Below, piece by piece: positions 42,711 to 53,438 of a stretch of 64,000 nucleotides of DNA. Position 1 is the stretch's first letter. Each line of letters starts with the position of its first letter. The DNA is taken from assembly GCA_963790915.1 (NCBI GenBank), contig CAWBQS010000003.1:1451711-1515710 (forward strand), written 5' to 3'. The position numbers and the translations under genes are program-made. The stretch is from an uncultured Chloroflexia bacterium. GTDB lineage: Bacteria; Chloroflexota; Limnocylindria; Limnocylindrales; CSP1-4. A model generated the notes under the pieces. It saw only the letters and a list, made by a program, of their open reading frames with translations. It was not told where the DNA came from and made no database searches.

Positions 42711-44417
42711 ATGCCCGACCCCGGCGTCCCCGTGGCCACACCGCCCTCCCAGGAGGTCCTCGGTGAGGCTGCCCGCCGAGTGGCGGAGGCCTACCCATCG
42801 CTCTACGAGCACCAGCGCAGCGGGGTCGCCTTCCTGCTCTCGCGGCGGCGCGCCATCCTCGCCGACGACATGGGCCTGGGCAAGACCCGCCAGGCCATCA
42901 TCGCGCTCCGCGAGGCCCAGCCCAAGGGCCCCTACGTGGTCGTCTGCCCGGCCGGCGTGAAGCCTACCTGGGTCCGCGAGATCCACCTCGTGGAGCCGGG
43001 CGCTGACGTCGCGCTCGTGTCGGGGTCGGACGGTCCCCGAGCGAACGCCCGCTGGACGGTCATCAACTACGACCTGCTCGGGCGGCATCGCAAAGGCCTG
43101 GGCGCCATCGCGTGGGCCGGCATGGCCATCGATGAGGCCCACTACATCAAGAACGACTCGGCCCGCACCAAGGACGTGTTGCGCCTCGTGGGCCTGGTCA
43201 ACGGAGCCCACGAACCCGAGGTCGTGTACCTGCTCACGGGGACGCCCATGACGAACCGGCCGCGGGACCTCTTCAACCTGCTCAAGGCGGTGCGCCATCC
43301 GCTGGCCACCTCGTTCTACAGCTACGCGAAGCGCTACTGCGCCGCATTCGACAACGGCTACGGGCTGGACAGTCGCGGTGCCAGCAACATGGAGGAGCTG
43401 GCGCAGGTCGTGGCCGGCGTCATGCTGCGGCGGACCAAGGACGAGGCACTGGACCTGCCGCCCAAGATGCGCACCTGGCAACCGGTGGAGATCGACTCGG
43501 CCGAGGTCCGGCGCGCCGAGGCCACCGCTCTCCAGTTCTTCTCCGACAACCCCCAGCGCGACGGTCCCGCCTGGGCCACCTTCCTGGGCAAGCTCAACCA
43601 GGCCCGCCACGCCCTGGCGCTGGCCAAGGTCGACGCCACGCTCGACGCCGTGCGGGAGCGGCTCGAGGCCGGCGAGAAGGTCGTCGTCTTCAGCAGCTAC
43701 AGCGGCGTCATCGAGCGGCTCAGGGCGGAGCTCGGCGACCAGGCGCGCGTCATCACCGGCGCCACCCCGGTCGCGCAGCGCCAGGCCGCGGCCGATGCCT
43801 TCCAGGAGGATCCTGGCGTGCGCGTCCTGCTCGGGCAACCTCGTGGCCGCGGGCGTGGGGCTGACGCTGACCGCGGGCACGCACGTCGTCTTCAACGACC
43901 TCGACTGGGTGCCCGCCAACCACTGGCAGGCGGAGGACCGCATCTACCGCATCGGCCAGACGCGGCCGGCCTTCGTGACCTACCTCGTCGCGGAGCGCAC
44001 GCTGGACGACTACGTCGCGGCGCTGCTCGAGCAGAAGGCCCGCCTGGTCGGTGTCCTGGAGGCGGAGGCGGCGGACCGTGCCACCCTCGTCGAGGCGGTC
44101 GTGGAGGCCGCCGTCAGCGGCGAGCGGCCCGACTGGGGCAGGCTCGGCGTCGAGCAGGCGGAGCGGGTGGCCGCGGCGCAGCCGATGGCGGCTCGATGGG
44201 CCTCCTGGGCGACGTGCTGGACCTCCTCGCCCGGGCCGGCCGCGGCCTGGGCGCCATCAGCGCGGAGCAGGTCATCGAGGTCCCCAGCCGCTCCCGGCCG
44301 GGGGAGGTCAACATCGTGCGCATCGTCGCCGGCGTGGCCACCTGCTCCTGCAAGGGCTTCTCATACCGCGGCGACTGCAGCCACGCCCGCGAGGCCGCGA
44401 AGCAGGCGGCGGCGTGA
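42711..44417 (+). CDS. SNF2/DEAD-H helicase with C-terminal SWIM zinc finger (two compensating frameshifts)
   Basis: LADDMGLGKT, DEAH and TGTP. AAGVGLTL and WVPANHWQAEDRIYR are in the ORF 43378 frame. Terminal CSC...CSH. Confidence 0.85.
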   Translation: MPDPGVPVATPPSQEVLGEAARRVAEAYPSLYEHQRSGVAFLLSRRRAILADDMGLGKTRQAIIALREAQPKGPYVVVCPAGVKPTWVREIHLVEPGADVALVSGSDGPRANARWTVINYDLLGRHRKGLGAIAWAGMAIDEAHYIKNDSARTKDVLRLVGLVNGAHEPEVVYLLTGTPMTNRPRDLFNLLKAVRHPLATSFYSYAKRYCAAFDNGYGLDSRGASNMEELAQVVAGVMLRRTKDEALDLPPKMRTWQPVEIDSAEVRRAEATALQFFSDNPQRDGPAWATFLGKLNQARHALALAKVDATLDAVRERLEAGEKVVVFSSYSGVIERLRAELGDQARVITGATPVAQRQAAADAFQEDPGVRVLLGQPRGRGRGADADRGHARRLQRPRLGARQPLAGGGPHLPHRPDAAGLRDLPRRGAHAGRLRRGAARAEGPPGRCPGGGGGGPCHPRRGGRGGRRQRRAARLGQARRRAGGAGGRGAADGGSMGLLGDVLDLLARAGRGLGAISAEQVIEVPSRSRPGEVNIVRIVAGVATCSCKGFSYRGDCSHAREAAKQAAA

Positions 44418-44608
44418 CGGGGACATCGTCGGGTCGCTCAGCACCCTCTGCGACATGCGCAACCAGTGGTCGCTGGCGCCTACCATCGGATCGACACTCA
44501 GAACGGGGGAAGTCCTATGAACGCGTCTTCTACGTGGTACGACCCGGCGATCGGTGAGATGCCCGGGCGCCGCGAGGCGGCCGAGGCGGCAGCGTGAGCT
44601 GGTATGGC

Positions 44609-44622
44609 ACTATGGCCATAGT
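44609..44622. promoter_or_regulatory. Perfect 14-bp palindrome ACTATGGCCATAGT abutting the antitoxin ATG
   Basis: Directly precedes the ATG at 44623. gtatggca repeats occur at 44602 and 44621. Confidence 0.6.
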
Positions 44623-44910
44623 ATGGCAACCATCAAGATGACGTTCAGCCTGGACGAGGCGACGGCGGCTCGGCTGGAGGAGTCGGCCGCGTCCCTGCGC
44701 AAGCCCAAGAGCGAGGTCGTGCGGGAGGCCATCCGCGACTACGCCGAACGTGTCGGCCGCTTGACGGAGGCGGAGCGACGCCGGCTCCTCGGCGTCTTCG
44801 ATGAGCTCGTGCCGGCCATCCCGGCGCGGCCCGTGGACGAGGTCGATGCGGAGCTCTCCGAGCTCCGGCAGGCGCGCCGCCAGGGCGGAAGAGGGCGGGC
44901 ACCGGCGTGA
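44623..44910 (+). CDS. CopG/RHH antitoxin (VapB-like)
   Basis: MATIKMTFSLDE...KPKSEVVREAIRDY. Overlaps the toxin start. Confidence 0.82.
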   Translation: MATIKMTFSLDEATAARLEESAASLRKPKSEVVREAIRDYAERVGRLTEAERRRLLGVFDELVPAIPARPVDEVDAELSELRQARRQGGRGRAPA

Positions 44911-45287
44911 TCGTCGTCGATACGTCGGCGCTCATCGACAGTCTCGCCGGCCCGAGGCGTTCGGCGCCCCGGATGCGCGCCCTCATCGAGGCTGGCGAGC
45001 GTCTCGCGCTCCCGACCCTCGTCCTCTACGAGTGGTGGCGCGGGCCGCGGCGTCACGAGGAGCTCGCGGCCCAGGAAGCCCTCTTCCCGGCGGAGGCGGC
45101 GCTGCCCTTCGGCGTGGAGCAGGCAGACATCGCGGCGCGCCTCTACGGGTCGGTGAGTCGGCCCCGGGGTCGAGAGGTGGACCTGGCCATCGCCGCCCAC
45201 GCCATCAGCAGGGACGCCCGCCTCTGGACCCTGAACCCTGGCGACTTCGAGGACATCCCAGGCCTCGTCACCGTCGTGCTCGCCTGA
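44907..45287 (+). CDS. vapC: VapC PIN-domain toxin
   Basis: VVDTSALID, VLYEW, DLAIAAHA and LWTLNPGDF. Confidence 0.9.
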   Translation: MIVVDTSALIDSLAGPRRSAPRMRALIEAGERLALPTLVLYEWWRGPRRHEELAAQEALFPAEAALPFGVEQADIAARLYGSVSRPRGREVDLAIAAHAISRDARLWTLNPGDFEDIPGLVTVVLA

Positions 45288-51659: not shown

Positions 51660-51825
51660 CGGCCCCACCCTTCGGGCCGGATGGCGCGTCGTGGTCCAGG
51701 CAGTCGCACCGGCGGTTGGCAAGTCCGCCACGACGGTGGGACTCCCTGGCGGACAGGCGAGGCGGCTCCTGCGACCGGGCGGGCGCGCGGAAGTACACCG
51801 GCACGGCCCGCAGACCGAAGGCGTC

Positions 51826-51877
51826 ATGTCTCATAACATTGACACAACGTCGGCGTTGCGTCTAACCTATGAGACAT
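51826..51877 (+). promoter_or_regulatory. hipBA promoter with a 10-bp inverted-repeat operator pair
   Basis: ATGTCTCATA (51826-51835) and TATGAGACAT (51868-51877) bracket TTGACA-N18-TAACCT. The ATG lies 7 nt after the -10. Confidence 0.7.
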
Positions 51878-52181
51878 GAAGAAGTCGAAGCCGCTCTACC
51901 CACGGCAGCAGCGCGCGGCTTCAGAACTGGGCGCGCGGGTTCGACTTGCCCGAGAGCGCCGACGTATGCCCGCAGCGGAGATGGCGGAGCGCGCCGACAC
52001 CTCTCGGATGACGATCTACCGCCTGGAGCACGGCGACACGAGCGTCAGCCTCGGCGTGCTCGTGCGGGTGCTTGGCGTTCTCGGGCTGGTCGACGACCTC
52101 GGTGCAGTCGCCCGGGACGACGTCCTCGGCCGCCAGCTTCAGGACGCCGCCCTGCCGCGTCCCTCGCGGTCGTTGCGCTGA
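51876..52181 (+). CDS. hipB: HipB-like XRE helix-turn-helix antitoxin
   Basis: LGARVRLARERR...MAERADTSRMTIYRLEHG...VSLG. TGATG overlap with hipA. Confidence 0.75.
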   Translation: MKKSKPLYPRQQRAASELGARVRLARERRRMPAAEMAERADTSRMTIYRLEHGDTSVSLGVLVRVLGVLGLVDDLGAVARDDVLGRQLQDAALPRPSRSLR

Positions 52182-53438
52182 TGCCGAGGCTGGACGCTGC
52201 CGCCGTCTTCCTCGACGCACGCGACCTCGGTCCGTGCCGCGCAGTCGGCACACTCCGGCCCGCCGGTCGTGCGCCCGACAGCCCGATCGGCTTCGTCTAC
52301 GCCGCGGAATGGTGGTCCGAGCCCGCCGCCTTCCGGCTCGACCCGAGCCACTACGAACAGACCGTTCAGCCGCAGTATCCGGAGCCGGGTCACCAACTCG
52401 CGCCCGTGTTCACCGACGCCTCGCCTGACCGATGGGGGCGGATCCTGCTCGACTACCGGGAGCAGGACCGGGCAAGGGCAGAGGGCCGACGGCCCCGGCC
52501 GCTCGGCGAGTGGGACTATCTGCTCGGCGTCAACGATGAGCTTCGCATGGGCGCGCTGCGCTTTGCCGCGCCCGCGGCAGGTTCTCCGTTCCTCGACGAC
52601 GGTCCGGGTTCCGTCCCGCCGCTCGCGGACCTTCGGGAGCTGGAGCACGCAGCTCGGATCGTCGACGACCCACGTCATGATGATCCGTCCGCCATCCGGG
52701 ACGCACTGCGGCAGCTTCTCGCCCCCGGCAGCCCGATGGGTGGCGCCCGTCCCAAGTCGAACTTCCTTGATGCGGCAGGCGCGCTGTGGTTTGCGAAGTT
52801 CCCGTCGCACAACGACCGCAGAGACATGGGTGGCTGGGAGTACGTTCTGAATCGCCTCGCTGCACACGCGGGGATCGACGTCCCGGAGGCCGACCTTCGG
52901 ATGTTGTCCGGCCCGTACAACACGTTCCTCGCGCGTCGCTTTGACCGAGAGGGGAACGGCCGACGCCTGTTCGCGTCGGCCATGACGATGCTCGGCAAGC
53001 GGGACCGTGAGCCATCTTCCGTACGCCGAGATCGCCGAGGCCATCGACCTGAACGGGGCACCCGGTCACATCGAAGAGGATCTCGCCCAGCTGTTCCGCC
53101 GGCTCGTGTTCAACATCGTGACCGGTCATCGCGATGACCATCTGCGCAATCACGGGTTCCTGCGGGCCCCTGCCGGATGGCGTCTCGCTCCCGCCTATGA
53201 CCTCAACCCGATGCCTGAGATGTCGCAACACGAGGTTGCTGTCGGGCTTGCGGCCAGGGATCCCGATGTCGAGGTTGCCGTCAGTGAGACCGCGCCGTTC
53301 TGCCGGCTGACCCCGGCCGCGGCGCGCGACATCGTGAACGAGGTCCGTTCCGCGGTTGCAGAGTGGCGATCGGTCGCGCGCGAGGTGGGCCTGTCACGCA
53401 CGGAGATCGAGGCGGTGTCGCCGGCATTCGACGAGTGA
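52181..53438 (+). CDS. hipA: HipA-like Ser/Thr kinase toxin (frameshift near 53020)
   Basis: DASPDRWGR, GGARPK, AKFP, RRFDR, DDHLRNHGFL and LAPAYDLNP. Confidence 0.88.

Follow-up and report, generated by a model that had tools for sequence, protein, structure and literature searches.

We analyzed a nuclease- and helicase-rich block at positions 42711 to 53438 of a 64,000-nucleotide stretch of DNA, referred to here as the window (C3:1451711-1515710 of the source genome), from an uncultured soil bacterium of the class Limnocylindria (Chloroflexota). The source genome is a long-read metagenome-assembled genome of 3.32 Mb with 71% G+C, consisting of five contigs and estimated to be about 85% complete. 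We conclude, with a probability of roughly 0.6, that the block is a mosaic, in which genes of a repair regulon stand among independent selfish or defense inserts, and not one system. Its identified components, that is, an SbcEF-type repair pair (yhaO-yhaN, hereafter yhaON), an SNF2-SWIM helicase, a type IV-like nuclease with a PUA-type domain and an HNH domain (PUA-HNH), and the toxin-antitoxin modules vapBC and hipBA, are all of known kinds, and they are accompanied by a small orphan gene and a decayed copy of the SNF2 gene. In the mosaic reading, the gaps around the backbone genes would be filled by independent cassettes with fast turnover, namely, the PUA-HNH gene, the orphan, vapBC, hipBA, and the decayed SNF2 copy.

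Distribution of the block genes among relatives

Since plain open reading frame (ORF) calling was useless at 71% G+C, we followed the best path through the frames under a codon-score model that had been trained on the genome's long ORFs. Every gene that an earlier note, made from the sequence alone, had listed for the block was recovered in its place. That note suspected that yhaO, yhaN, the orphan, and the HNH gene act as one unit. The four genes are indeed co-oriented with short gaps of 3 (yhaO stop to yhaN start), 110, and 29 bp, the last of these being the distance between the orphan and the HNH gene that the note had given.

The distribution of these genes does not support such a unit. 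Among 30 relatives, yhaN was found in four other species of the genus (G001, G008, G011, and G012) and weakly in G007, and the HNH gene was limited to G009 and, in distant form, to two genomes of another family. The yhaN-bearing and HNH-bearing relatives did not overlap, G009 possessing the HNH gene without yhaN, and yhaON of G001, G008, G011, and G012 was accompanied by neither the HNH gene, the orphan, nor SNF2. In addition, a scan of species representatives yielded 418 loci encoding HNH relatives, from which we examined the best 80 together with two metagenome loci. No yhaO or yhaN gene was present within 10 kb in 78 of these 82 loci, which span Chloroflexota, Acidobacteriota, Nitrospirota, Bacillota, Proteobacteria, and other phyla. 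The four exceptions were the closest relatives (HNH identities of 97, 85, 83, and 66%), and the orphan stood beside the HNH gene in a single locus, L017, being missing from that place in the other 81.

Besides, the gene content between the shared genes differed even among these close relatives. L017 keeps the order yhaO-yhaN-orphan-HNH as well as vapBC, and an extra gene (8696-9136 in L017) separates yhaN from the orphan; the product of this extra gene resembles DUF6884-type proteins (GCVKSKL...YVSTLFR motif). L018, whose flanking genes are 96 to 98% identical in amino acid sequence to those of the window, keeps SNF2 (97%), the HNH gene (85%), and yhaN and yhaO (about 93 to 96% over most segments). 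In this locus nothing occupies the position of the orphan, and a PemK pair stands in place of the decayed SNF2 copy, an IS3 element and a 348-amino-acid ORF in place of vapBC, and a Fic gene in place of hipBA. L097 shows the order HNH, VWA, MerR, yhaO, yhaN, with the HNH gene on the other side of yhaON; this locus is otherwise syntenic with that of G001, relative to which the HNH gene is inserted. A MerR-VWA pair adjoins yhaON in G001, G012, and L097.

A single unit is unsupported because the distributions of yhaON, the HNH gene, and the orphan differ and because the intervening genes vary even in the closest relative. Neighborhood conservation of yhaON with the HNH gene, which the earlier note proposed to check, holds in the four close relatives, in two arrangements, and fails in the four other species of the genus; the occurrence of yhaON in relatives without the HNH gene or the orphan is largely what the note had said would tell against its proposal.

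The shared palindrome and a candidate regulon

yhaON and the SNF2-SWIM gene are convergently placed, and the palindrome that the earlier note called shared was confirmed in their promoter regions (GTGCCAGACAGGTGGCAC ahead of the helicase gene and GTGCCAGCTCACGTGGCAC ahead of yhaO). The pattern GTGCCA-N6/7-TGGCAC occurs at 11 exact sites in the genome, versus one site for a reversed control, and the wider pattern with an N4-9 spacer occurs at 13 sites, versus about 2 expected from base composition. All 11 exact sites lie between genes: ten are outside the coding mask, and the remaining one is situated some 20 bp ahead of a likely start codon. Sites of the reversed control with at most one mismatch were intergenic in 4 of 61 cases. 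Moreover, the palindrome is conserved upstream of yhaO in L018, G012 (L009), and G008 (L011) and upstream of SNF2 in L017, L018, and L026. Given that the palindrome is strongly non-random and that relatives retain it ahead of yhaO or SNF2, it is plausible that yhaON and SNF2-SWIM are co-regulated through this shared sequence, as the note had suggested.

Further copies precede other nuclease genes. One (36178-36196; GTGCCA-N7-TGGCAC) is located 49 bp upstream of a gene for an AddB/Cas4-like PD-(D/E)XK nuclease (PDDEXK_1; 35305-36129, minus strand), which a vapC gene adjoins, and another is located 43 bp upstream of a gene for a TM0106-family RecB-like nuclease fused to a superfamily 1 (SF1) helicase (C4:69363-72600). 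The palindrome is also found ahead of an ECKD-motif protein and of the MerR-VWA pair, which in the source genome lies away from yhaON. The protein encoded at C4:69363-72600 is at least about 1,070 amino acids long and has a C-terminal SF1 helicase domain (AAA_30/Dna2-like), and its reading frame is interrupted by about ten assembly frame breaks. At C3:1015093-1022152, three copies of the palindrome occur around the MerR-VWA pair and a gene for a 773-amino-acid beta-helix protein.

Upstream of lexA (C3:~653930), we found a perfect Gram-positive-type SOS (Cheo) box, GAACAAGTGTTC (GAAC-N4-GTTC). Upstream of recA (C2:347854), a copy of the palindrome with one mismatch and 10-nucleotide arms (TTCGTGCCAG-N5-CTGACACGAA) lies about 430 bp before the start of the RecA-domain match, and no Cheo box was found in this stretch of about 430 bp. 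Since lexA itself carries the classical GAAC-N4-GTTC box, the genes behind the palindrome probably constitute a LexA-independent damage or stress regulon. We tentatively suggest that the palindrome may be the operator of a previously undescribed regulon of this kind in soil Limnocylindria, comprising the membrane-hairpin SbcEF-like pair, SNF2-SWIM, the TM0106 nuclease-helicase, the AddB/Cas4-like nuclease, and perhaps recA, although on the whole we hold this full composition to be somewhat less probable than even. A putative regulator would bind the palindrome and co-control these DNA-end-processing genes, and the MerR-VWA pair is a candidate for this role. A point against MerR binding to the GTGCCA palindrome is that the MerR-proximal region of G001 and L097 contains another repeat (TGACAG-N11/12-CTGTCA) and lacks a GTGCCA site.

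By analogy, such a regulon would resemble the PafBC-type LexA-independent damage regulons of Actinobacteria. As in the mycobacterial PafBC/P1 (RecA-NDp) regulon, a second, non-LexA motif stands ahead of nuclease and helicase genes and possibly recA (PMC5656591), and lexA carries a classical SOS box, whereas the motif found here is a true palindrome and the P1 element is asymmetric (PMC5656591). If this is true, an uncultured soil class would possess a second DNA-damage-type regulon, and the little-studied YhaO/YhaN machine would gain a regulatory context.

Mosaic, defense island, or single system

Several observations weigh against the mosaic reading and the regulon that it includes. SNF2, the HNH gene, and yhaON stay together in four close relatives. 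A loose functional link between the HNH gene and yhaON is possible, because the two are near each other in two arrangements, and a scan for consensus promoters and terminators at the yhaN-orphan-HNH junctions found nothing, so that co-transcription of these genes by read-through is possible in the source genome. The palindrome is missing upstream of yhaO in G001, L097, G011, and L017, and its genus-wide enrichment over the control is about 1.8-fold (77 versus 43 sites). The copy at recA has one mismatch, and sites with one mismatch, as a class, show no intergenic enrichment (2 of 29); we rejected such sites as an extension of the regulon for this reason and kept only that at recA, as suggestive. 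Some palindrome-adjacent genes, encoding an S41 peptidase, an aldehyde dehydrogenase-like protein, a beta-helix protein, and an MFS transporter, have no obvious role in DNA metabolism. Furthermore, the view that the frame breaks described below are assembly errors rests on a comparison of assemblies.

One alternative is that the block is a variable defense island, all parts of which, including yhaON and SNF2-SWIM, are separate anti-phage or anti-plasmid systems, with the palindrome marking the defense regulon of a BrxR/CapW-like repressor. The toxin-antitoxin modules, the type IV-like nuclease, the insertion sequence in L018, and the quick turnover of content would all suit an island. The same applies to the patchiness of yhaON, present in 6 of 31 relatives, and to SNF2-SWIM, which was not found in 18 other species of the genus, and the SNF2 domain does match the models of ZorD, DpdE, and DrmD. 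The flanking genes, too, are neither conserved nor syntenic across the genus, and borders of an island could not be defined from them. However, searches of raw and read-through proteins with PADLOC, Pfam, and NCBIfam yielded neither a named defense system nor partner genes, the PADLOC and NCBIfam matches being generic, at the level of domains, and far below the family cut-offs, in agreement with the earlier note, which recognized no named system in this combination. It should also be considered that the only characterized YhaN/YhaO pair is a repair complex (PMC2811018), that elsewhere in the genome the palindrome precedes the TM0106 nuclease-helicase and the AddB/Cas4-like nuclease, with a near-match at recA, and that yhaON of other species is found beside MerR-VWA in an ordinary chromosomal context. 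We therefore regard a defense island as unlikely.

The proposal of the earlier note, that yhaO-yhaN-orphan-HNH, possibly with SNF2, forms a single new defense or repair system in which the HNH protein serves as an accessory nuclease of the SMC-like complex and the orphan as an adaptor, is largely refuted by the distribution of the genes and appears very improbable. What speaks for it is the compact co-oriented arrangement, in which no terminator was detected, the same order in L017 and L018 (in the latter with no orphan), the presence of the HNH gene near yhaON also in L097, and the nuclease gene yhaM downstream of yhaN in Bacillus subtilis (PMC2811018). These points are hard to reconcile with an HNH gene that is solitary in nearly all examined loci across many phyla, with an orphan that adjoins it only in L017, and with yhaON that lacks both in four species of the genus. 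Even the loci that carry the genes together differ, since L017 has a further gene between yhaN and the orphan and L097 has MerR-VWA between the HNH gene and yhaON, and no PADLOC system matches. A nuclease- and helicase-rich neighborhood should not be taken for one new defense system, and adjacency that is confined to very close relatives can be misleading in a long-read assembly full of indels. With the mosaic reading preferred, the leads that we consider worth following are the palindrome-defined regulon, the question of which specificity the HNH family has, and the small orphan protein with its unmatched fold.

Components of the block and frame breaks

The features of the block and its margins are listed in Table 1.

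Table 1. Features of the block and of its upstream margin (positions in the window)
Feature	Position	Strand	Basis or remark
Pseudo-SNF2, degenerate partial SNF2 copy	41236..42500	+	Direct repeats, read-through translation
Palindrome GTGCCAGACAGGTGGCAC, candidate operator	42530..42547		About 165 bp upstream of SNF2-SWIM start
SNF2-SWIM helicase, about 568 amino acids (read-through)	42711..44417	+	SNF2-rel_dom, Helicase_C, SWIM signature
vapBC: vapB 44623-44910 (ribbon-helix-helix [RHH]), vapC 44907-45287 (PIN)	44623..45287	+	4-nucleotide overlap
PUA (ASCH/EVE-like)-HNH endonuclease, 307 amino acids	45425..46348	-	HNH_2, PDB sequence matches, AlphaFold model
Orphan, small conserved protein, 108 amino acids	46378..46704	-	Intact 108-amino-acid copy in L017
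yhaN, YhaN/SbcE-like SMC-type ATPase, about 1119 amino acids	46815..50174	-	AAA_27, SMC_N
yhaO, YhaO/SbcF-like Mre11/SbcD-family metallophosphoesterase, about 438 amino acids	50178..51498	-	Metallophos, TIGR00619
Palindrome GTGCCAGCTCACGTGGCAC, candidate operator	51640..51658		142 bp upstream of yhaO start
Inverted repeat, 26-nucleotide arms TCATGTCTCATAACATTGACACAACG / CGTTGCGTCTAACCTATGAGACATGA	51824..51879		Ends on hipB start codon
hipBA: hipB 51876-52181 (helix-turn-helix [HTH]), hipA 52181-53438 (HipA kinase)	51876..53438	+	HTH_31/HTH_3, HipA_C

The read-through YhaN protein matched Pfam AAA_27 (PF13514; 5e-20, 72 bits versus a cut-off of 22) and, with its C-terminal head, SMC_N, and retained the Walker A (GPNEAGKT), signature (LSRG), and Walker B (IVMDD) motifs. 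At the apex of its coiled coil, residues 511 to 558 form two strongly hydrophobic helices with NASP between them, and the CxxC zinc hook is absent, the protein having just 2 cysteines in 1119 residues. YhaO matched Pfam Metallophos (3e-12) and the NCBIfam model sbcd (TIGR00619; 1.5e-14) and possesses all of the catalytic Mre11/SbcD motifs (DLH, GDAF, GNHD, and GHIH). YhaN shares about 50% identity with its homologues in G001, G012, and G008. SbcE/SbcF of B. subtilis combine an SMC-like protein, with a hydrophobic central domain containing a conserved proline and no zinc hook, and an SbcD-like partner (PMC2811018), and their phenotypes concern double-strand-break repair and competence (PMC2811018; Krishnamurthy et al. 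2010). The pair studied here resembles them in the SbcD-like phosphoesterase gene directly upstream of the SMC-like ATPase gene, the AAA_27 head, the long coiled coils, the proline-containing hydrophobic central domain, and the lack of a CxxC hook. In contrast to B. subtilis, no yhaM-type exonuclease gene lies downstream, the lineage is Chloroflexota (Limnocylindria), the pair is patchy in the genus, and a lineage-specific palindrome stands ahead of it. yhaO-yhaN is an Mre11/Rad50-type pair that belongs to the SbcF/SbcE (YhaO/YhaN) family and is translationally coupled, with a hydrophobic hairpin instead of the zinc hook. By homology with B. subtilis, its most likely function is the processing of DNA double-strand ends in repair. 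We also considered YhaN as the ATPase of Lamassu, Wadjet, Gabija, or Dnd-Pbe and rejected this. PADLOC searches of its two in-frame pieces gave weak local matches to the LmuB, JetC, GajA, and DndD models (best E value, 1e-6), mostly to the P-loop (residues 13 to 95 of the N-terminal piece) and to short coiled-coil stretches, and none beyond these.

The HNH protein matched Pfam HNH_2 (PF13391; 1e-11, 45 bits) and no other Pfam family, and its gene contains two assembly indels, near 46179 and 46067, which compensate each other. In the protein collection, its in-frame ORF is present as a 307-amino-acid product, and L017 encodes an intact homologue that shares 97% identity with the read-through version. 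A PDB sequence search matched the HNH part to VcaM4I (6yex, 7e-8) and TagI; the catalytic H-N-H residues are present, and AAHI, ENG, and LHTLFD are invariant in 26 homologues. An AlphaFold model built with these homologues was confident for residues 1 to 160 (predicted local distance difference test [pLDDT] of about 90), for which Foldseek found ASCH domains as the best matches (5guq/5y6b; E values of 7e-5 to 2e-4, target TM scores of 0.57 to 0.69), followed by af2351, McrB-N, EVE, and YTH, all of the PUA superfamily. No DNA methyltransferase gene adjoins the HNH gene, the neighbors being vapC and the orphan, and the sole methyltransferase nearby (57029-58306) is of the small-molecule type. 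The combination of a PUA-type sensor and an HNH domain, with no neighboring methyltransferase, characterizes type IV modification-dependent restriction endonucleases (PMC6765204, PMC7897488). The protein shares with VcaM4I (EVE-HNH, 6yex), TagI (6ghs), and ScoA3V a length of about 300 amino acids, an N-terminal PUA-type fold, a C-terminal HNH_2 domain (PMC6765204, PMC7897488), and a stand-alone gene without an adjacent DNA methyltransferase, but it differs from these enzymes in that no match to EVE, SRA, or YTH is seen in the sequence of its N-terminal domain, the fold of which comes nearest to ASCH. As judged from the model, the architecture is that of a type IV modification-dependent restriction enzyme, and such a solitary enzyme would most likely cut modified foreign DNA; the dependence on modification is presumed from this architecture. 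Membership in the phosphorothioate-DNA restriction family NF045808 was rejected, as the protein scored 69.8 bits versus a cut-off of 180 and only its C-terminal half aligned, to model positions 163 to 284. With at least 6,000 clusters scored at an E value of ≤0.001, this large, phylum-spanning family of ASCH-like PUA-HNH proteins is a lead for establishing modification specificity.

The orphan represents a genuine, conserved family of proteins (about 105 amino acids; 90 homologous clusters), and its gene in the window contains assembly indels near 46642 and 46408-46424. It had no Pfam, NCBIfam, or PDB sequence match, and its confident model (pLDDT of 94) gave no significant fold in a Foldseek search against the PDB, where the best hit (E value of 0.18) was a partial SH3/Tudor-like similarity. 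Homologues elsewhere occur in inconsistent neighborhoods, such as AdnAB-like genes, a NERD helicase with UDG, and DUF4145. We consider this confidently folded family without a known fold match, which recurs beside nucleases and helicases, another lead. In L107 (551-9769), an orphan homologue is carried on an integrative element (integrase and TrwC relaxase) that also encodes a NERD protein, an HNH_2 protein other than the one described above, and the type IV restriction enzyme GmrSD.

The SNF2-SWIM read-through protein matched Pfam SNF2-rel_dom (1e-28) and Helicase_C (6e-12), contains the GLGKT and DEAH motifs, and carries the SWIM signature CSCKGFSYRGDCSH (CxCx8CxH), which scored below the threshold of the Pfam SWIM model. 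Apart from two gaps, corresponding to assembly indels at 43832 and 44179, its gene is 98.9% identical in nucleotide sequence to the intact 567-amino-acid ORF of L018. It shares a common SNF2 ATPase core with ZorD (Zorya), DrmD (DISARM), and DpdE (Dpd) and differs from them in being 568 amino acids long instead of about 900 to 1300, in having no nuclease or other system-specific domains, and in having a SWIM finger. We rejected its membership in Zorya, DISARM, or Dpd: scores against the NCBIfam models of ZorD, DrmD, and DpdE (106, 59, and 57 bits) are far under the cut-offs (1500, 610, and 500), and no ZorABC, DrmABC, or dpd genes are among the fully accounted genes of the 41- to 54-kb region.

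A degenerate SNF2 copy just upstream had been missed by the earlier note. This pseudo-SNF2 covers most of the SNF2 gene and contains at least six frame breaks as well as in-frame stops; its direct repeats D1 to D20 are 83 to 93% identical to 42743-44049 at a spacing of about 1,510 nucleotides, and its read-through translation parallels the SNF2 N terminus. Compared with every SNF2 allele, it showed 82 to 86% identity and 44 to 48 gap openings per 1.4 kb, a gap density far above the usual indel rate of the assembly. L017, L018, and L026 have no second SNF2 copy. The pseudo-SNF2 represents either a genuine relic left by an allele replacement or a part of the assembly in which a mixture of strains was poorly resolved.

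Both toxin-antitoxin pairs show the type II layout. VapBC consists of an RHH protein (Pfam RHH_1, 1e-9) and a PIN protein (2e-11; VapC in NCBIfam) whose genes overlap by 4 nucleotides, and HipBA consists of an HTH protein (HTH_31 and HTH_3) and a kinase that matched HipA_C in full length (1e-41) after read-through of one indel at 53003 and contains the DDHLRN motif. The inverted repeat ahead of hipB, which has a 4-nucleotide spacer and no second copy in the window, probably serves as the autoregulatory operator of HipB.

The indels that the earlier note suspected are present in the assembly, and the codon-score path required about 13 to 15 frame switches across the 10.7-kb block. These breaks look like assembly indels, so that the genes are to be taken as intact, for the following reasons. 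Read-through restored complete domains (Helicase_C in the helicase, the whole of HipA_C and Metallophos, and both ATPase heads of YhaN) and all catalytic motifs of the block proteins. When aligned with the two independent metagenome assemblies L017 and L018, each break was a window-private indel of 1 or 2 nucleotides, and those assemblies have their own, different private indels in the same genes. Breaks of this sort occur throughout the window, and the source is a long-read assembly. It is scarcely credible that the block is a pseudogene graveyard, as its number of breaks and the decayed SNF2 copy adjoining it might suggest, given that ordinary genes elsewhere in the window need similar numbers of frame switches, that three independent assemblies break the same genes at differing positions, that the coding signal between breaks is strong with full domain matches and all catalytic motifs kept, and that some breaks are compensating +1/-1 pairs about 100 to 350 nucleotides apart. 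A gene-level reading of the source genome needs frameshift-tolerant translation. Frame-breaking indels of 1 or 2 nucleotides occur about every 0.5 to 1 kb of coding sequence over the whole window, for example, at 38402, 39018, 39145, 53885, and 59388-61859.

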